This document shows, piece by piece, positions 1,586 to 32,342 of a stretch of 64,000 nt of DNA. Source of the DNA: an uncultured Gammaproteobacteria bacterium (GTDB lineage Bacteria; Patescibacteriota; Microgenomatia; UBA8517). Made by a program: the position numbers and the translations under genes. Under the pieces are notes generated by a model. The model worked only from the letters and a program-made list of their open reading frames with translations, had not been told where the DNA came from and did no database searches. The stretch is taken from the NCBI GenBank assembly GCA_964583105.1, contig CAZOUV010000001.1, positions 1,617 through 65,616 of the forward strand, written 5' to 3'. Numbering within the stretch: the stretch's first letter is position 1; every line of letters starts with the position of its first letter.

Positions 1586-1969
1586 TTACCACCTTCCTCC
1601 CCCACCTCTTGAAAAACCTCCTCTTCCGCCACCACGTCTGTCTCCTCCTCCAAACCCACCTCTTCCTCCTCCGAATCCACCACGCCTGTCTCCTCCAAAA
1701 TCTCTTCTGGGTGGTCTGTCTTCAAGGGGTCGAGCTTCCTGAACCACAATCTTTCTTCCTTCAAGTTCAGTGTCATTAAGTTCTTTAATTGCTTTATCTG
1801 CATCTTCATCGTTTTCATATTCCACAAATCCAAAACCTTTGCTTTTTTGTGTGAATTTATCAACGATAATCTTTGCAGAAGTAACCTTACCTATTTTTCC
1901 GAACAAGTCGGAAAAAGTAGTATCAGTTAAACTCCAAGGAATTCCGCCTACAAATAATCTTTTTGCCAT
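1586..1969 (-). CDS. RRM-type RNA-binding protein with a Gly/Arg-rich C-terminal tail
   Basis: LFVGGIPWSLTDTTFSDLF (RNP2-like) and KGFGFVEY (RNP1) motifs are present. The C-terminus is an RGG/GGRGG repeat. Confidence 0.85.
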   Translation of the reverse strand: MAKRLFVGGIPWSLTDTTFSDLFGKIGKVTSAKIIVDKFTQKSKGFGFVEYENDEDADKAIKELNDTELEGRKIVVQEARPLEDRPPRRDFGGDRRGGFGGGRGGFGGGDRRGGGRGGFSRGGGGRW

Positions 1970-2046
1970 TCTTTACTCACCACCTATCTTTTTCGATGTT
2001 TAAAGAAGGCAATTTACCTCGCCCTAAACGTATCGAATTTCAACTT

Positions 2047-2090
2047 AAAGCTATTATATCATGAATTGCGTCAGGATTCAGGTTATGATT
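2047..2090 (+). repeat. degenerate or internally deleted copy of the array junction repeat (left boundary?)
   Basis: aagctatt...gaattgc-gtcaggattcaggtt matches the ends of the repeat (gaagctatttt...attgc / gtcaggaacttcttcaggtt) but lacks the central aggggctggtaaactat. Confidence 0.3.
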
Positions 2091-2135
2091 TGTTTTAATG
2101 GATTTGGATCAATACAAATATTGTAAAATAAGATA

Positions 2136-3548
2136 GTGTCAAACCTGGAAGCTAAAAATAATACGACTTATCTCTCTATTCCAGATGTAATAAAAACATA
2201 CAATGTGTTTTTGACGCATGCTTTTATCGAGGGAGACCTGATGACATCGAAAACAAGCCACAATCCGTGGGATAAGAAATTGGATATTCTTTATGCATTT
2301 TCACCGTTAATATGCTGCAGTTCTTTTCGCCCGAATCACCATGAAGAATCGTTACTTGGAAAGGCGGGTGTATTAATAAACGACGGAGAAATCCAAGCGG
2401 CCTTCAATGCCGATATAACATCCTCTCCCGTAGGTATTAATAAGCGTAAATACAGGTACGAGCCGGATAGTTTGGATGTGGCGATTAAAACACGCAGTAC
2501 CGGTTGGTATAACGAAATTATTATTGATGATTGTAAAATTGCAGGTCTTTACATGAATATTACACATTTATTACACCACAATCTCAAACCGGAACAGCGC
2601 GGGGAGTTTATCCAAAAAATGAAAGATAAATCAAAAGAGTATAGCTTGCCGGTTTATGCAATAGAAAATGAAAGGGTTGTTTTACTGGGGAATTTTTTTG
2701 ATTTTGAAGGATTGGGCCAGATCATAAATTATGTAAGAGCGGAAGAAAGTTTGACAATATCCCCTTCACAATTACTAGACAACAAAAATATTAAATTAGA
2801 CCAAGAACGCATAGAGGAATTACGGTTGAAATTGGTTTCAGAACACGCCTTTAATCTCTCTGAAAGTAGGGAACAATTTCCGCTTCTTTCTGCTTATTCT
2901 ACTTTTGTAGGAGGAAGATTGAACTATATCTATAATTCTATTTGTAACAACAAGTTGAGCTTCGAAACGAAGCCTGAGATTTACGACAACATTGACAAAA
3001 ACGGAAGTGTTCCTTCTGGTGCCCATATTGAAATAATGTTAAATATTACAGACCCTTTTCTTGGATTTACGGCAAGAATTTTTAAATACAATGGAGAGAT
3101 ATATATAGATAAAATAACTTATTTCTATGAACACATAGCCCAGAAACCACGGTACCACTCACCGGAAAGAATTAAAGGATATCAGGATGATCGGTATGGA
3201 CTATTAGATAGATTGATTGGTGCATGGATTGATGGTGGCAGAGAAAGCCGTGTTTTATTGGGTTACCCCGAAGAAAAGTTTATTGGAAGTATTTCTGACG
3301 TTTTTAATATATATAAAGGTTTGAATAACAAGGAGTGGGGTGAATTACTGAACTACTATATAGTTGGTTTGGTTTCCCAGGCAAAAAAATGTGGAGATTC
3401 GGGTTTTGTGGAAAGGATTCTCAGTTTGAATTTACCGATAAATACGGATGAAATTTTAAAAAACATTCAAAAATTGGAGAAATCCGACGGAAGTATTAAC
3501 TATTCTTATATTGTCGATTTGCTCATTGAAAATAATTTATCAAAATGA
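2136..3548 (+). CDS. hypothetical protein (470 aa), first unit of the repeat-delimited array
   Basis: Long ORF with a GTG start. No motif recognised. Locally higher GC and different codon usage than the neighbouring housekeeping genes. Confidence 0.5.
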   Translation: MSNLEAKNNTTYLSIPDVIKTYNVFLTHAFIEGDLMTSKTSHNPWDKKLDILYAFSPLICCSSFRPNHHEESLLGKAGVLINDGEIQAAFNADITSSPVGINKRKYRYEPDSLDVAIKTRSTGWYNEIIIDDCKIAGLYMNITHLLHHNLKPEQRGEFIQKMKDKSKEYSLPVYAIENERVVLLGNFFDFEGLGQIINYVRAEESLTISPSQLLDNKNIKLDQERIEELRLKLVSEHAFNLSESREQFPLLSAYSTFVGGRLNYIYNSICNNKLSFETKPEIYDNIDKNGSVPSGAHIEIMLNITDPFLGFTARIFKYNGEIYIDKITYFYEHIAQKPRYHSPERIKGYQDDRYGLLDRLIGAWIDGGRESRVLLGYPEEKFIGSISDVFNIYKGLNNKEWGELLNYYIVGLVSQAKKCGDSGFVERILSLNLPINTDEILKNIQKLEKSDGSINYSYIVDLLIENNLSK

Positions 3549-3568
3549 CGTTTTTGTCTAACACAAAA

Positions 3569-3874
3569 TTATTTGGTTTTTGATTCCAGGGGTGATAAAT
3601 AATCTGCAATTTCGCGAATGGTTTTGGTATTGACCCCACCCATTTTTTGATCATTTAGGATATTTATCTTTTCATCAAACTCTTGATTATCCGGTCTTAT
3701 ATTTAACTCATCTAGTTGACTTAACACCTTTTTTAAAGTTGGAAGAGTGTTTATCGAATCAAAACCTCTTCCTGCCATCACAGCATCTATATTATCTGCG
3801 ACCTTGCGTGCAAGATTTGCTGTTTTACTACGCCATTCATCAAGTGTTAAAGGAGTTGTATTTTCTTCATTCAT
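3569..3874 (-). CDS. hypothetical protein (101 aa)
   Basis: ORF convergent with 2136-3548. No motif recognised. Confidence 0.35.
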   Translation of the reverse strand: MNEENTTPLTLDEWRSKTANLARKVADNIDAVMAGRGFDSINTLPTLKKVLSQLDELNIRPDNQEFDEKINILNDQKMGGVNTKTIREIADYLSPLESKTK

Positions 3875-3921
3875 TCCCTAATTATTTATGACACTGCCGT
3901 GAAGTAAATATTTATACAATA

Positions 3922-3960
3922 TTTAACAAGGGTCTAGCAAACTACGTCAGGAACTTCTTT
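3922..3960 (+). repeat. array junction repeat copy 1 (divergent)
   Basis: caagggtctagcaaactacgtcaggaacttcttt versus the consensus gcaggggctggtaaactatgtcaggaacttctt. Confidence 0.6.
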
Positions 3961-3986
3961 TGGTGTAAATACTTTAAAATTTGTTA

Positions 3987-4331
3987 TTAAAATTTTTTGC
4001 TATCCCAAGCGGGTATGTCTCTCATCTCACTTTTATATATCTGTTTTTTTAAGTTCCTCAGAGCGCTCTTTTCAATTTCTCCTGCCCTTGATGACGATAC
4101 TCCAATCTTGGAAGCAGTTTCCTCTAAAGTTAATCCATCAAAGAAGCGGTATTGCAAGACCTTTTGATACCTTTCTCTTAAATTTGGCAGGAGCTTCTCC
4201 AAAGTTGCTCTATTTTCTGCCTGGATGAGTTCATCCTCTGAGCTTGCATCTAATATCCCAACAGCTTCAGAAAGTGAAGACCATCCAGCTTCTTCCTCGC
4301 GACAGGCTAAATACTCTTTATCTTCAGACAC
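3987..4331 (-). CDS. sigma-70 family region-4-like fragment (stand-alone C-terminal DNA-binding domain)
   Basis: RYQKVLQYRFFDGLTLEETASKIGVSSSRAGEIEKSALRNLKK matches the sigma-70 r4.2 HTH. There is no region 2. GTG start. Confidence 0.5.
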   Translation of the reverse strand: MSEDKEYLACREEEAGWSSLSEAVGILDASSEDELIQAENRATLEKLLPNLRERYQKVLQYRFFDGLTLEETASKIGVSSSRAGEIEKSALRNLKKQIYKSEMRDIPAWDSKKF

Positions 4332-4349
4332 AATATGATTATATCATCC

Positions 4350-4392
4350 GAAGCTATTTTGCAGGGGCTGGTAAACTATGTAAGGAGCTTCT
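4350..4392 (+). repeat. array junction repeat copy 2
   Basis: gaagctattttgcaggggctggtaaactatgtaaggagcttct. Confidence 0.8.
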
Positions 4393-4396
4393 ATTT

Positions 4397-4948
4397 TTAG
4401 ATAAATGTTACTATTACAGTCCAAATTGACATTGTTGCAAATGCCCATTTCTCCATAAGGGCATTTTTTATTTTATATTTGTTGTGCAGATAAAATAGAC
4501 CCAAATAATAGAAAATGGGGATAAATATTGAAATTAGTTTAAAAGTTAAGTTGCTAATCGATAAACTTATAAGTATTGTTGAAAAAGGGTTTGCTAAAAA
4601 GTAATACTCTGCAAGACATTTATGAATTTTGGGATAGCTTTGTTCTGAAAATATTGCCACTAGGATTGACGCTATTGCCGTACTGACGTATATAAGTATT
4701 CCAATATTCAGGTGGTTTTGCCATAATTTACGCAGTAGATAATATGAAAATAAAAGCTGAAAGAATCCGCCAATTATTAGACCAATATTAATAATAATTT
4801 TGAGTTTTTTGTTATTTGTAGCATGGGTAATTGTCTGTTTTCTACTATTGATACCGGCAGAAATGCTTGGGGTGACCACAAAAACCCAAGCGAAAAACAT
4901 TGCCAATAAACCCGAATATTTCATAAGCACAGTTTTATTGTATAACAA
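4397..4948 (-). CDS. integral membrane protein, hypothetical (about 5 TM)
   Basis: Hydrophobic segments run throughout. No motif recognised. Confidence 0.45.
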   Translation of the reverse strand: MLYNKTVLMKYSGLLAMFFAWVFVVTPSISAGINSRKQTITHATNNKKLKIIINIGLIIGGFFQLLFSYYLLRKLWQNHLNIGILIYVSTAIASILVAIFSEQSYPKIHKCLAEYYFLANPFSTILISLSISNLTFKLISIFIPIFYYLGLFYLHNKYKIKNALMEKWAFATMSIWTVIVTFI

Positions 4949-5015
4949 TGCAAATAGAACATGTTCGGAGGTTAAAGTAGGGAGTGATTGAAGATTTTCG
5001 AACTATTAAATCGCT

Positions 5016-5050
5016 TCAGTTGGTAAAATATACTGAGGACGTTTATCTAG
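5016..5050 (+). repeat. degenerate junction repeat copy (2b)
   Basis: cttcagttggtaaaatatactgaggacgtttatct retains the ctggtaaactatgtcaggaac core in weak form. Confidence 0.3.
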
Positions 5051-5229
5051 CGAGCTTTGGGTATCTACAGATTGACAGTCTGAGGCTAGAAAGGTAGAAT
5101 TACCTTAATGGATAGAAATTGTCCCATTATAAATCAGTCAGCCACCCTTGTTAAAAACAAGGTGAATTGTGCTGGTTTTGTAATGGAAATCAATAAGAAC
5201 TAAACAAAAAATAAATAGATTAAGTAAAA

Positions 5230-5253
5230 CCAGCCACAAAGGGCTGGTTTTTT
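5230..5253 (+). terminator. intrinsic terminator-like hairpin plus T-run, 19 bp upstream of the MFS gene start
   Basis: CCAGCC-acaaag-GGCTGG followed by TTTTTT. Confidence 0.5.
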
Positions 5254-5271
5254 AGTTTTAGAAATAGCATT

Positions 5272-6480
5272 ATGAATAAAATAGTGAACATAATAAAAAA
5301 CAACGTAAATAATACCATCTGGAGGTATTACGCTTTTACCTTCTTAAAGGATTTGTCGTTTTTTTCGGCTGTTTTGGTACCCTTTTTTACAGAGTGGGGT
5401 CATATTTCTTTGTTTCAGGTACAAATTCTCCAGTCGTGGTTTATGTTCTGGTTTTTTATTTTGGAAATTCCCACAGGAGCTGTGGCGGATTACATTGGCA
5501 GAAAACATTCAATGGCCATTGGGGCTTTGATGGTTGCGATTGCGGCCATAGTTTACGGCAGCGTTCCTCGGTTTGAGGTATTTCTTTTAGGAGAGTTTTT
5601 GTTTGCGGCGGCAATGTCCTTTGTCTCGGGCGCGGATGAAGCCCTTTTATATGATTCTCTAAAAGAAGCCGGAAGGGAAAATGAAAGGAAGAAGATTTTC
5701 GGAAGGGCAAATTCTTTTCATTTGTTGGGTATGTTTATCGCTGCACCCATTGGTTCTTTTATTGCCTCAAAATTTGGACTAAACGTACCAATGCTTATTT
5801 CTTCAGGTTCATTTTTGTTGGCAGCTTTAGTTGCTTGGAGTATAAAAGAGCCTCTTATTCATCAAGCAAAATCTGAATCAAGACGGTATCTTGATATTGT
5901 AAAAACAGGCTTTTTCTTTCTCCGTAATCATAAAATATTGAGATTATTAGCCTTGGATGCGATAGTTGTAGCCTCTTCTTCCTATTTTGTTATTTGGCTG
6001 TATCAGCCGCTTTTGAGAAGTGTGGGTGTTGGTATTTTCTATCTAGGAATTATACACGCCACCTTGGTTTTATCAGAGATTTTAATATCAACCAATTTTG
6101 AGAGGCTAATTAAACTATTTGGGTCTGATAAAAGGTATTTAAAAATTAGTATGATAATTGTTGTATTATCTTTTTTGCTTGTGGCAATTTGGCCGAACAT
6201 AATAACGATTTCAATTTTGATTATTTTTGGAGGAGGATTTGGTTTAACAAGATTGCCACTAATGTCATCTTATATGAATAAATTTATTCCCTCTGAACAA
6301 AGGGCAACGGTTCTTTCGTCAATTTCTATGTTTCGTAGATTTGGATTAGTACTACTTAATCCTTTGATAGGTTTTACAGCTGACCACTCATTAAGATTAG
6401 CTGCTTTAGTTGTTGGCCTACTTCCATTGGTATTATTTGCTTTTTCACCAATAGAGCAAGAAATGTTGGATGAAAACTGA
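5272..6480 (+). CDS. MFS transporter
   Basis: 402 aa with about 12 TM segments. GRKHSMAIGA resembles the MFS loop 2-3 motif (GxxxDrxGrR-like). Confidence 0.75.
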   Translation: MNKIVNIIKNNVNNTIWRYYAFTFLKDLSFFSAVLVPFFTEWGHISLFQVQILQSWFMFWFFILEIPTGAVADYIGRKHSMAIGALMVAIAAIVYGSVPRFEVFLLGEFLFAAAMSFVSGADEALLYDSLKEAGRENERKKIFGRANSFHLLGMFIAAPIGSFIASKFGLNVPMLISSGSFLLAALVAWSIKEPLIHQAKSESRRYLDIVKTGFFFLRNHKILRLLALDAIVVASSSYFVIWLYQPLLRSVGVGIFYLGIIHATLVLSEILISTNFERLIKLFGSDKRYLKISMIIVVLSFLLVAIWPNIITISILIIFGGGFGLTRLPLMSSYMNKFIPSEQRATVLSSISMFRRFGLVLLNPLIGFTADHSLRLAALVVGLLPLVLFAFSPIEQEMLDEN

Positions 6481-6523
6481 AGCTGTTTTGTGGAGTTGGT
6501 AAACTATATTCGGAACTTATTTT
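6481..6523 (+). repeat. array junction repeat copy 3
   Basis: agctgttttgtggagttggtaaactatattcggaacttatttt. It starts 1 nt after the MFS stop. Confidence 0.7.
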
Positions 6524-6576
6524 GTCGACAATACTTGAGTAGTGGTGAATAAGGTATAATTACTTTACAATTTTTT

Positions 6577-7401
6577 ATGGAAAGTACACAAGTAAATGAT
6601 GTTTTTATTCCAAAAGATCAATGCGCATCCACCGTTTCTTTAATTCAATCTGTAAAGCAAAATATTGAAATTGAAAAAGGACTAAAACCGTGGTGGTATT
6701 TTCAATTAGATGAATTGTCTGGTGCGTTAAATAGACTTAAGCAGAATCAGGGTGTAAAGATTGGCGATTTTTCTACTCAAGACGAGATAAAGGCAATGCT
6801 ACACCCGCGTGATGTTGGTGAAGCCATAAAAGGCGTAATGAGTGGAAAGATGGAATATCACGCATGGACACAGTCATGTTTTGTTCAATTTGGTTCAAAA
6901 AAATTACCTACCAATAAAGATGAAGCTGCTGATCAGTTACGAGTAAATTCTTGGTGGATAGGAAATAATCAAGGAGTAAGTGAAGAAATGACCAAAGGAT
7001 TACTGGCTATATCTAAATTATATACAGAAGATTTTCCTCAACAGGCTAATGTTAAATTTTCAAACGATCCGGAGAAAAAACAATTTAATATGAAGAAACT
7101 GGTTGATTTTGGTAGGCAATTGTTCGGGTGGGATAAAGAGACCACATCTATAGAATTTCAAAAAGTATATTGGGATGTTTCGGAAAGAAAGCCAATTTTT
7201 ATGCCGATATTTACAATTAGAATCTCAAAAACATTGGATGAAAAGTGTAAATTTACAATATTTGGAACAGATCCCTATAGGTCGGAAGATAAAAGAACAT
7301 ACTATTTTGAAAACCCTTCTGATGGAGAAAATATTATTAAGGAAATTGAAAAATCGATTGATTTAATCTCCAAACAGCAAAATAAATATAGGAAAAATTA
7401 A
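6577..7401 (+). CDS. hypothetical protein (274 aa)
   Basis: ORF with no motif recognised. Confidence 0.45.
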   Translation: MESTQVNDVFIPKDQCASTVSLIQSVKQNIEIEKGLKPWWYFQLDELSGALNRLKQNQGVKIGDFSTQDEIKAMLHPRDVGEAIKGVMSGKMEYHAWTQSCFVQFGSKKLPTNKDEAADQLRVNSWWIGNNQGVSEEMTKGLLAISKLYTEDFPQQANVKFSNDPEKKQFNMKKLVDFGRQLFGWDKETTSIEFQKVYWDVSERKPIFMPIFTIRISKTLDEKCKFTIFGTDPYRSEDKRTYYFENPSDGENIIKEIEKSIDLISKQQNKYRKN

Positions 7402-7426
7402 ACGGTTTTGTGATACAATCGACCCA

Positions 7427-7732
7427 ATGAGCAACGAAATGGTGTATTTATCAATAAAGACCGATTTGGAATATATTGACCTAAACGGTCACCTCAGGAT
7501 TATTGAAAGGCTTTCTGGGATGGTAGACAGAATAGAGTTGGCAAAAAATATGAAGGTTTTCTCCCAAAAAGCAAAGGAACAAGGTTTACGACCTGGAGAA
7601 ACAAATATTAAAAATATTCTTAGTTCTGATCAGAAGGCTTGTTTGAATACTTTGATGCCACACGGAAATATTCCCCCCGAAACCCTCTCGGAGAATATTA
7701 CCTTTTCGGCAATAACTCCCATCAGTAGATGA
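7427..7732 (+). CDS. hypothetical protein (101 aa)
   Basis: ORF 26 bp after the previous gene, in the same cassette-like unit. Confidence 0.35.
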   Translation: MSNEMVYLSIKTDLEYIDLNGHLRIIERLSGMVDRIELAKNMKVFSQKAKEQGLRPGETNIKNILSSDQKACLNTLMPHGNIPPETLSENITFSAITPISR

Positions 7733-7773
7733 AGATAGGCTATAAACGTATAGTTAACAAACATATCATTTGA

Positions 7774-7830
7774 ATTTATTTTGCAGGGCCAGTAAACTAT
7801 GTCAGGAACTTCTTCAGATCTGAATTTCCA
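7774..7830 (+). repeat. array junction repeat copy 4 (extended form)
   Basis: atttattttgcagggccagtaaactatgtcaggaacttcttcagatctgaatttcca. Homology to copy 8 continues to about 7860. Confidence 0.8.
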
Positions 7831-7846
7831 TGAGTTGCTGTAAAAT

Positions 7847-8383
7847 GTGAATATGTTAAATAAATTACTTTTTTTACAAGCTGGCAAACAGACACTGGTT
7901 ACCAATGAAATAAAAAATATTGCATCTTCAGCTAGAGGGAGTTCTCGCGACAAAATTAAGAAAATAATGTCCGTAGTGAACTCATTAAAACATGTTGGAT
8001 TTGATGAGAAATTCTTTAGGAAAAGGACTGCCTCACAAATAATAAAAGACGGTTTTACTACTGGTTGTACAGATTCTGATATCGCATTTGTGACTTTGTC
8101 CAGAGCCTGTGGTTTGCCCACAAAATATGTGGAGACTATTGGCAAAGATTGGTTAAAAAGTGGTAGCGAAACTTCAATAAAAGGTCATCAGTATGCACAG
8201 ATTTGGATTAAGGAGGATAAAAAATGGATTTGGGTTGATCCAATAGGTAATAGAATTGATACTCCTTCCCCGGACATGGAAGGACGGATAATCTTTAAAG
8301 TTGGTTTAGACAGTTGGGATATTGGTATAACAGATTTTAAAACCCTTCAAGAATTGTTCTTGAAGTTTAGAAAAAATATTTGA
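7847..8383 (+). CDS. transglutaminase-like cysteine peptidase superfamily protein
   Basis: GCTDSDIAFVTLSRACGLPTKYV is a TGase-core Cys context. Downstream are GHQYAQIW (His) and WVDP (Asp). The track start is GTG 7847; ATG 7853 is an alternative. Confidence 0.5.
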   Translation: MNMLNKLLFLQAGKQTLVTNEIKNIASSARGSSRDKIKKIMSVVNSLKHVGFDEKFFRKRTASQIIKDGFTTGCTDSDIAFVTLSRACGLPTKYVETIGKDWLKSGSETSIKGHQYAQIWIKEDKKWIWVDPIGNRIDTPSPDMEGRIIFKVGLDSWDIGITDFKTLQELFLKFRKNI

Positions 8384-8384
8384 C

Positions 8385-8427
8385 GCTATTTTGCAGGGGC
8401 TGGTAAACTATGTCAGGAACTTTTTTG
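8385..8427 (+). repeat. array junction repeat copy 5
   Basis: gctattttgcaggggctggtaaactatgtcaggaactttttt. It begins 2 nt after the stop. Confidence 0.85.
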
Positions 8428-8487
8428 ATATGGTTTATTAATACAAGTTATATTAATAATAAGCAAGAATTGCTATAGTTTAACTAT

Positions 8488-9180
8488 ATGCGGCATTGGT
8501 TAAGGTGGTTTTTTCTGATTTTCGGATTTGCGGTTTTGGCAACGGCATACTACTTGTTTCCTCCCTCTTTTTACCTTCCACATAAAATTCCCGTACTCAT
8601 TTTGCCAATAGAATCAAAATATGACAATATTGCGAATATTATGCCCATGGGTGAAAAAATAGCCCATCCTGATAAATATGGACATCCAGGTATTGACTTC
8701 GGTTTTATGACAATAGATGAAGATAGATATATTCCCTATGTTGCAGCCATGGATGGAGTAATTAGTAAAGTTAAAATATACCTAAATAATGAAGAGAAGG
8801 ATGTAAAAATAAAACCATTAAGTAAAAACATGGCAGACATTGTAATTAAAAACGGACCATATCAAGTTGTCTATGGTTCAATGGACGGTGACACTATTCC
8901 TGCAAATATTAAAGTGGGTGCCAAGATTAAGCAGGGAGATATTGTGGGTTATGGAAACTTTATGTATAAAGGAACAGAACCAGGAACTAAAAGTGAAATG
9001 ATACATTGGGAGTTTGGGTCAACATCACCCCTTATAGACCGTTTTTGCCCTTTAACGTATTTTACTGAAGAATCGAGGGTAAGAATAGAAAAAATTTGGT
9101 TTCAAACAGAAGATACTCAAATAAAATCTCAATATCCACTGATATGTAACGGAGTATACGAAAATAAGGTTGAAAGATAA
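8488..9180 (+). CDS. M23/LytM-like metallopeptidase (tentative), N-terminal TM anchor
   Basis: YGHPGIDFG matches HxxxD and MIHWEFG matches the HxH region. N-terminal hydrophobic helix. Confidence 0.4.
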   Translation: MRHWLRWFFLIFGFAVLATAYYLFPPSFYLPHKIPVLILPIESKYDNIANIMPMGEKIAHPDKYGHPGIDFGFMTIDEDRYIPYVAAMDGVISKVKIYLNNEEKDVKIKPLSKNMADIVIKNGPYQVVYGSMDGDTIPANIKVGAKIKQGDIVGYGNFMYKGTEPGTKSEMIHWEFGSTSPLIDRFCPLTYFTEESRVRIEKIWFQTEDTQIKSQYPLICNGVYENKVER

Positions 9181-9207
9181 GACTTCTATGAATTAGTTAT
9201 TGTTTTT

Positions 9208-9253
9208 GAAGCTATTTTGCAGGGGCTAGTAAACTATGTAAGGAACTTCTTTT
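9208..9253 (+). repeat. array junction repeat copy 6
   Basis: gaagctattttgcaggggctagtaaactatgtaaggaacttctttt. Confidence 0.85.
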
Positions 9254-9286
9254 GCTTTAGTTTTGAGTCTGAGATAAAATTCGGTT

Positions 9287-9622
9287 ATGGCAACATTTGA
9301 CGATTTCCAAAAGCTAGACATAAGAGTGGGGAAAATAATTGAAGTTGAGGATTTTCCTGAAGCCAAGAAGCCGGCTTATATCTTAACAATTAACCTGGGA
9401 GACGAAATTGGGATTAAAAAGTCATCTGTCCAAATTGTCAGTTTGTACAAGAAGGAAGACTTGGGCGGAAAGTTAGTTCTTTGTGTGGTAAATTTTCCCC
9501 CAAAGCAAATTGGACCCTTCTATTCAGAAGTTTTAACCCTAGGGATTCCAGATAAAGAGGGGAATTGTATATTGATTACTCCAGATATTAAAACTGCTGT
9601 TATTGGCGGGAGACTCTATTAA
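9287..9622 (+). CDS. tRNA-binding domain protein (CsaA/YgjH, EMAP/Trbp111-like OB fold)
   Basis: LDIRVGKIIEVEDFPEAKKPAYILTINLGDE ... KLVLCVVNFPPKQIGPFYSEVLTLG is the typical CsaA architecture. Confidence 0.75.
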   Translation: MATFDDFQKLDIRVGKIIEVEDFPEAKKPAYILTINLGDEIGIKKSSVQIVSLYKKEDLGGKLVLCVVNFPPKQIGPFYSEVLTLGIPDKEGNCILITPDIKTAVIGGRLY

Positions 9623-9627
9623 CCTTC

Positions 9628-9672
9628 GAGGCTAAATTGCAGGGGCTAGTAAACTATGTCAGGAAGTTCTTT
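9628..9672 (+). repeat. array junction repeat copy 7
   Basis: gaggctaaattgcaggggctagtaaactatgtcaggaagttcttt. It starts 6 nt after the stop. Confidence 0.85.
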
Positions 9673-9740
9673 GGGTATTACGAGACCTCTTTTTTCGGAG
9701 TTGAAAACAGAAGCTGCAAAGATTAAAATCCTTTCCAGGG

Positions 9741-10004
9741 GTGATTAAAACAATGGAAACCAACAAACAACCAAAAGACATTCCTTTCAAATTGGCTTTA
9801 GAAAACACAGTTAAAGAGTTTGGTGAAAGTGGAGAAGTTAGACCTGAAACAGCCGCAGAAATGACGCAGCAGATTATAAAACAGATAGGTATTCAGGAGA
9901 CCGACATGCCTGCAGTGGAAGAAGCATTGAAAGAGCACTATTACACCTTGAGATATGAAGAATATCGTAATGCAGCTATGTCAGTATTGGGAGATAAAGG
10001 TTAA
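9741..10004 (+). CDS. hypothetical protein (87 aa)
   Basis: Acidic small ORF with no motif recognised. Confidence 0.35.
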   Translation: MIKTMETNKQPKDIPFKLALENTVKEFGESGEVRPETAAEMTQQIIKQIGIQETDMPAVEEALKEHYYTLRYEEYRNAAMSVLGDKG

Positions 10005-10029
10005 CAAATTAGCTCATTAATAAACCTTT

Positions 10030-10090
10030 GAAGCTAAATTGCAGGGGCTAGTAAACTATATAGGGAACTTCTTCAGGTTTGAATTTCCCC
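10030..10090 (+). repeat. array junction repeat copy 8 (extended form)
   Basis: gaagctaaattgcaggggctagtaaactatatagggaacttcttcaggtttgaatttcccc. Homology to copy 4 continues toward the next start codon. Confidence 0.85.
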
Positions 10091-10112
10091 AAATTAATGT
10101 AGAATATGTTTA

Positions 10113-10853
10113 ATGTGCACTTTAGCAGCCAAGAGAATAAAGAATGGGTGGTTTTTAATAAAAACGAGAGACCCCGTGCCGTGGATGAGAATAGACGATG
10201 AGATAAAGTTGTTTGATTCAAAACAAGACAAATATAAGAAGTTACTTATTCAAAATCCCGACCCCAAGGAAGATGGTTATTATGGGGGAATAAACGAAAA
10301 GGGAGTCGCTTTTACAGCAACATTTGTTCCTGTAGCCGAAAATCAGGTTTCGTATATAAGAAGACCATATGTTAGGCTTATCTTGGATGCTTCCTCCGCA
10401 AAGGATGCGATAGAAATAATTAAGTCTTTTAATCCCAAAATAGGCGGCAATTTTTTTGTTGCTGATAAAAATGAATGCTACGAAGTTGAAGGTTCTCCCG
10501 AAGAATACTCAGTTACGAAAGTCGATAAACCTCAAGCTAAAACAAATCATTTTACGCATTTGCCGTACCAGAATGTACAAATGAAAATGCCTTGGTACAA
10601 AAAGTGGACATTTAACAGGCTAGAAAGGGCTCAAGAATTAATTGATAAAGCAGAAAACCTTGAGGATTTGGAGAACATACTTAAGGATAGGAAGAATGCC
10701 GATTCGAAAACTGCAATTTGTATGATAAAAGGTGAATCGGATTACAATCCTCCAACTGCGTCAGCGTTTGTTTTTGATACTGCGAATAGTACAGCATATT
10801 ATTGTCAAGGCAGTCCACTAGAATCTCCATTTAACAAGTTCAGCGCCCTTTGA
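10113..10853 (+). CDS. Ntn-hydrolase-like protein with an N-terminal Cys nucleophile (C45/C59 acyltransferase/peptidase-like), tentative
   Basis: It begins MCT... (Cys2 after iMet removal), typical of the choloylglycine hydrolase / acyl-CoA:6-APA acyltransferase fold. YYGGINEKGVAFTA and ICMIKGESDYNPPTASAFVFD are also present. Confidence 0.45.
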   Translation: MCTLAAKRIKNGWFLIKTRDPVPWMRIDDEIKLFDSKQDKYKKLLIQNPDPKEDGYYGGINEKGVAFTATFVPVAENQVSYIRRPYVRLILDASSAKDAIEIIKSFNPKIGGNFFVADKNECYEVEGSPEEYSVTKVDKPQAKTNHFTHLPYQNVQMKMPWYKKWTFNRLERAQELIDKAENLEDLENILKDRKNADSKTAICMIKGESDYNPPTASAFVFDTANSTAYYCQGSPLESPFNKFSAL

Positions 10854-10869
10854 AGCTAAATTGCAGGGG
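10852..10869 (+). repeat. truncated junction repeat copy 9, overlapping the stop codon of the previous gene
   Basis: gaagctaaattgcagggg, then it diverges into a tRNA-3'-like sequence. Confidence 0.7.
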
Positions 10870-10954
10870 TGCAGGGAATCGAACCTTATGGGAATCGTTA
10901 ATTTTTTCTATGCCTCGAAAAATGGATTAAATTAAACTACAATAACTTCTACCC

Positions 10955-11563
10955 ATGTTTGATGAAGTCATATTTGATCTTGAAACGAAAAGTTTTTTTG
11001 TTGAGGATGGAAAGTTCGACCCCTCCCGTTTTGGTGTTTCTGTTCTTTCTTTATATCATAGGAAGCTTGATGAAAGTTTTAATGAAATTAAAGGTGAGAT
11101 ATTAAGTTTTTGGGAGAAAGACTTTTCTAATATGTGGAAGATATTTGAAAACGCAAACAGAATAGTAGGTTTTAATTCCCTGTCTTTTGATGTTCCTGCT
11201 CTTTCGCCGTATTCTCCTAAAGGTTTTTCAAAGCTTCCCCATTTTGATATTTTGGATGAGATTAAAAAGGCTACGGGACATAAAACTTCACTTCATAAAA
11301 TTGCAAAAGCTACTTTGGGAGTACAAAAAACAGACACAGGGGAAAACGCAGTTATCTATTGGGAAAAGGGAGACAAAAAAAGCCTAGAATTATTAAAAAA
11401 ATACTGTGAAGATGATGTAAGAATAACCAAAGACATATATGATTATGTTTTAAAAAATAAAATATTGAAGTTTACCGATTATTGGAATAATCCTCGGGAA
11501 ATTGAAATGGATTTTTCCTATAAGTTAGAAAAGGATGATTCTCCCCAAGCTACTTTGTTTTAG
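10955..11563 (+). CDS. DEDD-family 3'-5' exonuclease (DnaQ-like)
   Basis: Exo I FDLET, Exo II IVGFNSLSFDVPAL, Exo III YCEDDVRITKDIYDYV. Confidence 0.7.
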   Translation: MFDEVIFDLETKSFFVEDGKFDPSRFGVSVLSLYHRKLDESFNEIKGEILSFWEKDFSNMWKIFENANRIVGFNSLSFDVPALSPYSPKGFSKLPHFDILDEIKKATGHKTSLHKIAKATLGVQKTDTGENAVIYWEKGDKKSLELLKKYCEDDVRITKDIYDYVLKNKILKFTDYWNNPREIEMDFSYKLEKDDSPQATLF

Positions 11564-18142: not shown

Positions 18143-18216
18143 GTCGCCATCATCTAACGGTTTAGGATATCAGGTTCTCATCCTGAAAATTGAGGGTTCG
18201 AATCCCTCTGGCGACA
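18143..18216 (+). tRNA. tRNA, anticodon read as CTC (Glu); 74 nt without an encoded CCA
   Basis: Acceptor GTCGCCA/TGGCGAC, T-arm GAGGG-TTCGAAT-CCCTC, anticodon stem TCAGG/CCTGA with loop TTCTCAT. The D-arm is slightly atypical. Confidence 0.7.
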
Positions 18217-30890: not shown

Positions 30891-31326
30891 AGTTATGTCA
30901 GAATCAAAAATTGAGTCAATTCATACTGAAAAAAAGAAAATAACACCTGAAATATTAGGAATTGAAGCACAGTTTGATCGTATTTACCGTGGCGATTATG
31001 TTTATGGTAGAAATACGCTTCAAGCCAGGGATTATTTGTTAAAACACTTAAACGTTATTGAAAAAGATTTGAAAAGTGATAATGATGGAAGTTGTTCTCT
31101 TCGAATGATGGAAATGATTTTAGATCCGGATTATCCGCATGAACTGGATCCATTTTATCGTCAGGAAGTTGCGAATTTTGTAGATGATCATTTTGAGGAT
31201 ATTGCTAAAAGAATTACACCAAATGGCCTGAATGAAAAAAACATGAATAGTGAAACAGCCAGAGCTCTTCGAGTATTGACTAGTACCCTAAGTGTGCTGA
31301 GGGAAAAAGTGATTTGGTTACAATAA
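30891..31326 (+). CDS. hypothetical protein (145 aa), first gene of a 2-gene insertion after secA
   Basis: ATG immediately after the secA stop. No motif recognised. The codon choice looks different from its neighbours. Confidence 0.4.
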
Positions 31327-32342
31327 AGTATTTAGAGTTGTTTGATAAGAATAAGGAAATTATGATAAAAGAGTTTAAAGAACAACAAATGTTCAGCAGA
31401 CCCTTAGCAACATTTTTGTTTTATGAGTGGTCATTTTACCCCCCAGAAAAGAGTAAAAATACCGATAAACTAGTCAAAGAATTATTGTTTTATGATGGTG
31501 TGAAAGAATCTAAAGTTAGAGGTTTGTTTGATAAACTCCAGGAATATCGGCCAAATCTGATTCGTATCTTAGTTAAGGAAGAGCTTGAAAAGTACATTGA
31601 CGATGACGAAATTAGAGAAGATTGGGTCTCATCGCTTGAGGGTTATCAATATCATCGTTTTCCTAAAAGTCTTAACAGTATCGAGGTTTATAGTATGTTA
31701 GAAACCTGTAGACAGATTGAAGCAGTTGTTCCTAAAGGATGTGAACGTTTGAATAAACTTTTTGGCATAACCCATATTGCTCGATACCCCCATGAGATGT
31801 TACTTGAACAATTAAATGATTGGGATAATTATGATGACAGTCCATATGGAGTGATTGTTAGTGCTTGGGATGATTGGAATAATGCTTTTGCTCATGCTGG
31901 TGGTTCGGATCCTGACTTAAACGGTCATTTTGGGATTAATAGACATCTTTATCTTGATCTAAAGAAATTAGGGTATAAATTTCGAGCTATTGAAGTGAAA
32001 AATAAAGAAGAATTCATAACTCGCCAGCTATTTTTAGGAGAACATTTTGCTCAAGCAGGTAAGTTTCAGTTTCTCCACATTGCTGCTCACGGTTCACCCG
32101 AGGGTATACATTTAGGGAGAGGGGAAAATGATAAGGTTCGAACGGAAGATATTCGGCTATTAATGAAAGATCTTGCTCCACTCTACATTCCTCATATGGA
32201 GACTGTTTTTAAATCTTGCTCAACTGGGACGAAATTAGGTTTCGCCAGCAAATGGGCCAGTCTTGGCTCAGATATTTGTGCGGTTGCCCCAGACCAAAAC
32301 GGTAGTATCAAGAGTATATACCCATTAATGAGGGGGGGGTAA
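31314..32342 (+). CDS. hypothetical protein with a C-terminal caspase/CHAT-like His...Cys dyad (putative peptidase)
   Basis: FLHIAAHGSPEGIHLG (SHG-like His), then about 50 aa later ETVFKSCSTG (SACxTG-like Cys). The spacing fits caspase-fold C14/CHAT proteins. The gene ends in a G8 homopolymer. Confidence 0.4.
   Translation: MVTIKYLELFDKNKEIMIKEFKEQQMFSRPLATFLFYEWSFYPPEKSKNTDKLVKELLFYDGVKESKVRGLFDKLQEYRPNLIRILVKEELEKYIDDDEIREDWVSSLEGYQYHRFPKSLNSIEVYSMLETCRQIEAVVPKGCERLNKLFGITHIARYPHEMLLEQLNDWDNYDDSPYGVIVSAWDDWNNAFAHAGGSDPDLNGHFGINRHLYLDLKKLGYKFRAIEVKNKEEFITRQLFLGEHFAQAGKFQFLHIAAHGSPEGIHLGRGENDKVRTEDIRLLMKDLAPLYIPHMETVFKSCSTGTKLGFASKWASLGSDICAVAPDQNGSIKSIYPLMRGG

Follow-up and report, generated by a model that had tools for sequence, protein, structure and literature searches.

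What kind of system could line up unrelated small genes between copies of a single short repeat is the question raised by a locus of about 9 kb on contig CAZOUV010000001.1, from an ultra-small Patescibacteria/Microgenomates bacterium, which we analyzed within a stretch of 64 kb (hereafter the window). A preliminary description of this DNA had read the locus as a cassette array of the integron type, perhaps a cluster of attC sites lacking integron integrases (CALIN). We found that the repeats, hereafter sites, carry the end of a tRNA-Trp(CCA) gene, and the explanation we favor, with reasonable but not strong confidence, is that circles of one or two genes integrated site-specifically at that gene's 3′ terminus again and again, giving rise to an array of ~10 cassettes.

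The window contains 10 sites, all co-oriented and confined to 2.0–10.9 kb. A 35-nt version of the motif gave 5 matches with at most 3 mismatches, compared to 0 in 100 shuffles, and an nhmmer profile of 52 positions trained on 16 full copies placed plus-strand sites beginning at 3929, 4345, 6478, 7767, 8378, 9205, 9624, 10026, and 10847. No significant match was returned in the remainder of the 64 kb on either strand, in agreement with the original observation of co-oriented repeats confined to ~9 kb. A motif scan of one genome per species gave matches only in Patescibacteria, and the exact pattern matched only arrays in this species-representative collection, on 4 contigs from 3 genome records: the single-cell genome SAG AM-312-A20 (GCA_042571305.1; two arrays), the PFL142 metagenome-assembled genome, and a 4.5-kb contig labelled Ignavibacteriaceae. 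A spread of the repeat across the whole genome, raised in the preliminary description as a counter-possibility, was thus not seen. A metagenome scan yielded 30 further contigs. The 4.5-kb contig (JALNWB010000245.1; L002 among our loci, which are numbered with an L) is identical to the JGI metagenome contig Ga0172379_10037233 (L026); it holds Patescibacteria-type genes and site, a cassette 80% identical to one in the window, and the same tRNA-Trp, and its Ignavibacteriaceae label is probably a binning error. A full-text literature search turned up no account of arrays like these from Patescibacteria or Microgenomates.

Each full site consists of a weakly conserved left arm (YTGARGCTAWWTT), a 7-bp core (GCAGGGG), and a strongly conserved right arm of 26 nt (CTAGTAAACTATGTNAGGAACTTCTTT). 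In an alignment of 93 sites from the window and related loci, per-column conservation was 80–99% from GCAGGGG through the right arm, across contigs of GC 0.29–0.44, and only 50–60% in the left arm; many sites have unrelated sequence instead of the left arm, and conservation then begins abruptly at GCAGGGG. There are at least three right-arm subfamilies, all with the left arm and GCAGGGRCTRGT in common. Folding confirmed the absence of internal dyad symmetry reported earlier: single-strand folds of both strands (n = 11) gave z-scores of −1.7 to +1.3, none better than shuffled sequence, and an RNAalifold consensus of 18 sites reached −0.78 kcal/mol with 4 invariant pairs and 0 compensatory changes. 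Rfam 15 at its gathering threshold matched only tRNAs in the window and L001–L005, and at E ≤ 1 had no match in window positions 7700–10950. Neither a GTTRRRY/RYYYAAC box nor R″/L″–L′/R′ pairing was found by inspection, and the lack of hairpin, covariation, and Rfam matches shows that these sites are not attC-like.

Two further features of the sites were observed. Several carry insertions of ~22–27 nt directly after CTAGTAA, including the same ~27-nt insertion (AAAATGGTGAGCCCAGCCGAACCAC) after GTAAAYT at L001 2050–2124 and 7336–7413 and at L003 3176–3234 (the single-cell genome), the reverse complement of which (..GGTTCGGCTGGGCTCACCA) resembles the 3′ end of another tRNA with CCA; a different ~22-nt insertion lies at almost the same position in L003 4308–4379. 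These insertions may mark a second breakpoint or target within the site. The right arm also has a variable position in ACTATGTNAGG (for example window 9235–9243 and the L001 and L003 copies), where many copies read as an ATG-TAA or ATG-TAG start-stop and others open a short reading frame, ATG-TCA-GGA-ACT-TCT....

Read as its reverse complement, the core matches the final 7 nt of tRNA-Trp(CCA), which comprise the last 5 bases of the acceptor stem, the discriminator G, and the C that follows; the left arm is the 3′ trailer of tRNA-Trp in array-bearing genomes. Seven non-redundant contigs carry tRNA-Trp(CCA), and an eighth, L029, has a copy cut by the contig end. On six of the seven (L001, L002, L006, L012, L019, and L025) and on L029, the array lies directly 3′ of tRNA-Trp, which reads into it, and in the last site the left arm and GCAGGGG run straight into the tRNA body, which stands where the right arm stands in other sites. 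The remaining contig, L017, has sites downstream of its tRNA with no recognizable fused junction. The arrays sit within, and interrupt, an otherwise conserved rpmG–tRNA-Trp–secE–nusG cluster. In a Woesebacteria genome that has no array, tRNA-Trp ends in GCCCTGC and its trailer is unrelated; the trailer of the left-arm type thus goes with arrays.

The window retains only part of this anchor. Its terminal junction (10847–10869, plus strand), with left arm and GCAGGGG core only, runs into a 23-nt remnant of the tRNA-Trp 3′ end (10863–10885, minus strand), recognized by alignment to six intact tRNA-Trp genes and covering the T-loop, the 3′ strand of the T-stem, the acceptor 3′ strand, and the discriminator. 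Beyond the remnant (10885) lies unrelated sequence, followed by an RNase-H-fold gene. ARAGORN and Rfam did not place an intact tRNA-Trp at this end of the array, the one tRNA gene they reported in the 64 kb being tRNA-Glu at 18143; the window array is separated from its tRNA-Trp by a rearrangement, an insertion, or a misassembly or assembly join. Within window 10863–10960, GGGAATCG is repeated 10 nt beyond the remnant.

Array statistics were drawn from 109 sites on 33 non-redundant sequences (Patescibacteria genomes and metagenome contigs, the window included), counting open reading frames (ORFs) of at least 50 aa. Site orientation was never mixed within a locus. The 75 units between sites had a median length of 624 bp (10th–90th percentile 399–1143 bp) and a median coding fraction of 90%, and 59 of them held exactly one ORF. 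The reported flipping of gene orientation against constant repeat orientation was borne out, with 49 ORFs on the same strand as the site and 39 on the opposite strand; nearly all ORFs in L008 are opposite to the sites, and most in the window are on the same strand. The rule that a site directly follows a stop codon proved true of plus-strand genes, for three of which the TGA within the left arm is itself the stop codon (6478–6480, 8381–8383, and 10851–10853), and untrue of minus-strand genes, where the site adjoins the start codon (for example 4331 vs 4345). A foreign base composition of the units was not apparent, GC being 0.31–0.40 in the units and 0.28–0.42 in the flanks.

The cassettes encode an assortment of small enzymes and membrane proteins along with many unknowns, including MFS transporters, NUDIX, HAD, and HD-domain proteins, methyltransferases, a radical-SAM protein, an Ntn hydrolase, CsaA-like and P-II-like proteins, and a sigma region-4 protein. 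Their content is not conserved and differs between genomes, contrary to the fixed gene content among relatives that would have argued for a static locus. One cassette is shared: the Ntn-hydrolase unit of the window (10019–10840) aligns by blastn with L002 1883–2705 at 79.6% identity over 823 nt, the homology spanning exactly one unit and its upstream site, while the neighbors differ on both sides and L002 has one additional cassette between this unit and tRNA-Trp. The Ntn-hydrolase cassette is accompanied by its downstream flank and by a right-arm variant that is otherwise rare (TATAT for TATGT). Both arrays of the single-cell genome contain a P-II-like cassette, with identical left arms and different right-hand neighbors, which is also present in L022 and L027. 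Sites score lower the farther they lie from the tRNA end (pooled Spearman −0.34, p = 0.004; negative in 9 of 12 arrays; −0.81 in the window), as expected if cassettes are inserted at the tRNA junction and age once displaced. With small, mostly single-gene units between co-oriented sites, variable content, a shared cassette, and declining site quality, the cassette architecture proposed earlier stands.

Genes related to these cassettes were also seen elsewhere. The P-II-like gene that forms a cassette in the single-cell genome lies 0.4–1.8 kb downstream of tRNA-Trp in L042 (10001–10330) and L060 (9803–10129), and in L062 (10001–10327) it is found in a locus syntenic with the second array of the single-cell genome; because these three genomes have no recognizable sites, the loci may be fossil arrays. 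The most recurrent cassette gene encodes a coiled-coil protein of 78–86 aa (L006 2949–3185 and 5127–5387, L019 2159–2395, and L035 5196–5432), which occurs twice in one array (L006); in every case the left side between it and GCAGGGG is the same non-standard one (AGCRCATTTCTTTTTGG).

We suggest that a recombinase encoded off the array, whether at another genomic locus or on a transient element, would carry out strand exchange in or beside the 7-bp core, pairing the site of a cassette with the tRNA-proximal junction. An incoming cassette would then land beside the tRNA and displace older cassettes distally, and the displaced sites would decay. Under this mechanism tRNA-Trp would play the role of attI and the 50-bp sites the role of attC, as plain double-stranded sites. 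Circles as intermediates, the place of the crossover, and a recombinase and its type are all inferred; that the enzyme is a tyrosine recombinase is a guess, made because the 7-bp core has the size of the overlap region of such enzymes.

Several observations weigh against insertion at tRNA-Trp. The array of the window is not at an intact tRNA-Trp, L005 is an array, or an array end, away from tRNA-Trp, and so is the second array of the single-cell genome (L038 6629–13523, SAG AM-312-A20 NODE_4), which has 11 sites and ends in one truncated after GCAGGGGCTAGTAAC, 130 nt from tRNA-His. The conserved core is not flanked by a clear inverted pair of recombinase-binding arms. At the equivalent loci of two relatives (L060 and L062, 600-kb contigs) there are 11–12 kb of other genes and no sites, which would imply that sites were lost or decayed and that the system may be extinct in many lineages; no other repeat family was found at the equivalent locus of the array-less relatives L042, L060, and L062. 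In all, the single-cell genome has at least 29 sites in two arrays totaling ~20 kb, and in L038 a variant-type site (GGGAACTAGTAGACGAAGTTCGAGCCTTTTAC) stands ~35–40 nt ahead of the first standard site.

The searches for a recombinase and for intermediates count against it as well. Pfam detected no recombinase or transposase family, Phage_integrase included, among ~60 ORFs of the 64-kb window, consistent with the original statement that the window has no tyrosine recombinase; it detected no recombinase among 20 ORFs of related loci, and precomputed Pfam annotations showed none within about ±10 kb of four further regions, one of which carries sites (the second array of the single-cell genome) and three of which do not. 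Seven recombinase and transposase probes run with phmmer against 541 ORFs gave no genuine match, a weak negative given the weak probe panel, and no recombinase appeared among the ORFs tested in the 35 array-bearing loci. All-vs-all clustering found no protein family that recurs beside arrays, none of the fetched contigs had terminal overlaps, no circular cassette contig was found, and IMG/VR viral contigs held 0 true site matches, the 7 matches of a 17-mer being due to chance. With 0 true matches in the IMG/VR scans, we rejected a viral origin, and single-strand transposition of the IS200/IS605 or IS91 type was rejected for lack of subterminal hairpins. A PDB sequence search with the two largest unknown cassette proteins returned nothing.

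The only phmmer match, to XerD (E = 0.012), was window 31314–32342 (plus strand), and it was rejected as spurious as it aligned outside the catalytic motifs. This 342-aa ORF has no Pfam family, and its C-terminal HIAAHGSPEG...C pattern recalls caspase/CHAT-type proteases, an impression only.

Among the other ways to account for the array, we regard it as unlikely that it is debris at tRNA-Trp from serially integrated, decayed elements that once carried integrases (prophages, tycheposon-like elements, or other islands), each leaving an att repeat and a cargo gene. Tandem tRNA integration, repeated partial-tRNA att sites, and degenerate island remnants are documented for tycheposons (10.1101/2020.12.28.424599), distal sites are decayed here, and the 23-nt tRNA remnant of the window resembles the longer identity segments of classical tRNA-targeting integrases. 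However, the units are uniformly small (10th–90th percentile 399–1143 bp), 90% coding, and mostly composed of one intact ORF, and those examined contain no integrase fragments or replication genes. Their ORFs adjoin the sites, with the stop codon inside the site in three window units, and a repeat of 7 tRNA nt plus a highly conserved 26-nt non-tRNA arm is unlike the leftovers of diverse elements. Slightly more doubtful still is an origin of the repeat from the tRNA-Trp trailer as an expression or punctuation module (a promoter, terminator, RNA-processing signal, or protein-binding insulator), with homologous recombination between repeats, such as might follow DNA uptake, shuffling the units. 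Such a module would suit four observations: the searches turned up no recombinase, the site carries a promoter-like match (CTGACA-16/17-CAAAAT) on its minus strand, minus-strand genes begin ~10–25 nt from the left arm behind TGATATAMT, and TTGAAT just after the right arm precedes several plus-strand genes. Yet promoter-like matches in the region are at shuffle level (34 vs 32.8), genes lie on either strand (49:39) while site orientation never flips, and the sites have no hairpin or covariation; homologous recombination would also leave unexplained the sharp edge at the 7-bp tRNA-identical core and the polarity of decay. Both alternatives account less well than repeated insertion at tRNA-Trp does for units that are compact, intact, and free in orientation and for the sharp 7-bp edge.

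We consider it very improbable that this is a true integron array without its integrase, a CALIN with unusually short attC sites, even though its cassette size and single-ORF content are integron-like and its sites are homogeneous, as are those of sedentary chromosomal integrons. The sites have no stable fold on either strand, the consensus fold of −0.78 kcal/mol includes zero covarying pairs, R″/L″–L′/R′ pairing and the GTTRRRY box are absent, ORF orientation is unbiased, IntI was not found, and the anchor is a tRNA gene rather than attI. The integron identity put forward in the preliminary description therefore does not hold, and the tRNA-Trp origin of the core and left arm had escaped it. 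Equally improbable is a dispersed intergenic repeat, of the repetitive extragenic palindromic (REP) or miniature inverted-repeat transposable element (MITE) kind, that happens to cluster here. The repeat is indeed short, intergenic, and AT-rich, but it has no copies outside the array in the 64 kb, its pattern in the genome collection matches only in arrays, its orientation is constant within a locus, and it has neither terminal inverted repeats nor target duplications.

Insertion of cassettes at tRNA-Trp would give the arrays features of several known systems. As in integrons and CALINs, many small, mostly single-ORF units lie between co-oriented sites, ORFs reach up to or into the site, one end is a fixed dock, the gradient of site quality is consistent with the newest cassettes being proximal, and cassettes are common to several arrays; as in a CALIN, the array has no adjacent integrase. 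Unlike integrons, the sites are ~50 bp of plain sequence without an attC hairpin or extrahelical bases and are conserved across hosts in sequence rather than structure, the dock is the 3′ end of tRNA-Trp, and the near-equal use of both strands leaves no common orientation of the kind imposed by a Pc promoter. The fusion of arrays to tRNA-Trp in relatives places the system closer to tRNA-targeted site-specific integration than to attI × attC chemistry. Integrase-less cis-mobilizable elements (CIMEs) accrete beside integrative and conjugative elements (ICEs) at tRNA genes, and as in islands at tRNA genes, the repeated core corresponds to the tRNA's terminal 7 nt and, in six related loci, the junction is fused to an intact tRNA-Trp; the integrase that such an island encodes was not seen, no recombinase being found in the cassettes examined.

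Other relatives in design differ in their recombinases and sites. At the 3′ end of rlmH, the composite islands of the staphylococcal cassette chromosome (SCC) likewise line up tandem elements separated by short direct repeats, and some of these elements rely on a recombinase in trans. The arrays resemble them in this tandem layout behind a conserved gene, and differ in that SCC islands encode serine (Ccr) recombinases, comprise much larger elements, and target a protein-coding gene. In pdif/Xer modules and integrative mobile elements exploiting Xer (IMEX), small gene modules with short sites depend on a recombinase encoded elsewhere in the genome; their sites are 28-bp XerC/XerD targets arranged 11-6-11, and those of pdif modules alternate in orientation. 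We did not find an 11-6-11 arrangement by inspection of the 33 conserved bases, and found no Xer gene in the window; only the site heptamer GTAAACT resembles an arm of the Firmicutes dif site. Prochlorococcus tycheposons likewise integrate at tRNA 3′ ends, leave the tRNA intact, repeat their att between elements, push older elements inward as newcomers arrive, and leave degenerate remnants (10.1101/2020.12.28.424599). They are kb to tens of kb long, have an integrase of their own (present or former) and often replication genes, and number one or two per genome (10.1101/2020.12.28.424599), whereas the units described here are 0.3–1.7 kb, stand 10 to >18 in a row without an integrase, and have only 7 nt in common with the tRNA.

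Within the window, the distal limit of the array may be a decayed site at 2040–2085 (plus strand), recognized by eye (TTAAAGCTATT...GTCAGGA..TTCAGGTT). It matches the left arm at 10 of 11 positions, part of the right arm, and the extended right flank of the copies at 7767 and 10026. The nhmmer profile did not detect it, and a strongly decayed copy at ~2040–2085 is plausible by eye only. Unit 1 (2136–3874) holds a 470-aa ORF (2136–3548, plus strand) and a 101-aa ORF (3569–3874, minus strand) of unknown function, neither with a significant Pfam family or PDB sequence relative. The plus-strand site that follows (3929–3961; nhmmer E = 9.6e-7) has only the right part, model positions 20–52, and its left-hand sequence is unrelated to the left arm. 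Two minus-strand units come next, a 114-aa protein with a sigma-70 region 4 domain (unit 2, 3987–4331; PF04545, E = 6e-12) and a 183-aa DUF998 membrane protein (unit 3, 4397–4948; PF06197), separated by a full site (4345–4394, plus strand; E = 4.9e-16). The weak copy noted earlier near 5016 is real: it belongs to a variant-subfamily site (4965–5047, plus strand) with the left arm, the core-like GTAGGGAGTGAT, and a different right arm, and has 75–78% identity over 83–84 nt with two metagenome contigs (L019 1111–1193 and L021 720–803).

All remaining units and sites are on the plus strand. Unit 4 (5272–6480) encodes a 402-aa MFS transporter (PF07690, E = 2e-25) whose stop codon falls within the left arm of the next, divergent site (6478–6522; nhmmer E = 4.5e-4), and unit 5 (6577–7732) holds ORFs of 274 and 101 aa of unknown function. 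A full site with a 1-nt deletion in the core (7767–7815; E = 3.9e-13) precedes unit 6, a 178-aa transglutaminase-like protein (7847–8383; PF01841), and another full site (8378–8426; E = 2.4e-16) precedes unit 7, a 230-aa protein (8488–9180) with weak M23 peptidase similarity (PF01551, E = 0.023, below the curated cut-off). The best-scoring site of the window (9205–9253, full; E = 6.3e-18) is followed by unit 8, a 111-aa tRNA-binding-domain (CsaA-like) protein (9287–9622; PF01588). Full sites at 9624–9672 (E = 9.5e-17) and 10026–10074 (E = 8e-17) enclose unit 9, an 87-aa ORF of unknown function (9741–10004), and unit 10 (10113–10853) encodes the 246-aa Ntn hydrolase of the AAT family (PF03417) that abuts the terminal junction.

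We rejected the repeat itself as a promoter: matches to the promoter consensus lie on both strands, but promoter-like sites are not enriched over shuffles, and the fixed orientation of the repeat is independent of gene orientation. Recurrent promoter-like motifs at cassette edges mean that cassettes may carry their own expression signals, a possibility without statistical support. Beside minus-strand cassette genes, GTATATCAYCTGAGGC recurs at the left edges of sites (window 4332–4350, L001 495–520, and many in L008). Its gene-strand version, TGATATAMT, resembles an extended −10 motif, and the start codon comes 8–15 nt later, which suggests that 5′ ends here are very short or leaderless. The TTGAAT just past the right arm was seen in several plus-strand cassettes (window 7818–7835 and 10077–10095, and in L002, L012, and L021).

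Two other genes were noted in passing. Window 1586–1969 (minus strand) encodes a 127-aa RRM-domain protein, an identical copy of which occurs on two short Logan contigs (SRR14492171 and SRR14492173), and the gene contains a CCTCC-rich repeat with a 24-nt period (1602–1708). In L019, a partial ORF beside tRNA-Tyr (4890–5441, minus strand) has a PD-(D/E)xK-like motif (RPDYYLPDFDTYVEVK) and, judged by this motif, may encode a homing-type endonuclease that stands alone; other arrays showed no such ORF.

To our knowledge, no well-described system other than integrons accumulates one-gene cassettes at a fixed location. We tentatively propose that the Microgenomates, members of the candidate phyla radiation (CPR), may possess an integron-like platform of their own, in which tRNA-Trp is the dock, double-stranded sites of ~50 bp with a 7-bp core derived from the tRNA serve as the ends of cassettes, and an unlinked and possibly new recombinase family moves one-gene cassettes between genomes. 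If so, this would be a second, independently evolved cassette system beside integrons; the same logic, without a linked integrase and with different sites and a tRNA dock, would mean that evolution arrived at this solution more than once. The conserved 33-nt segment can be used as a probe, both for mining cassettes in metagenomes and for fishing out the recombinase. If CPR genomes are ~1 Mb in size, the two arrays of the single-cell genome, ~20 kb together, are a sizeable share of it. Such a system would also open a way into the study of horizontal gene transfer in CPR bacteria, which are ultra-small and host-dependent and whose pool of accessory genes, like its turnover, is poorly understood; if our proposal is true, it would be a main channel of gene flux in organisms for which almost no mobile elements are known.

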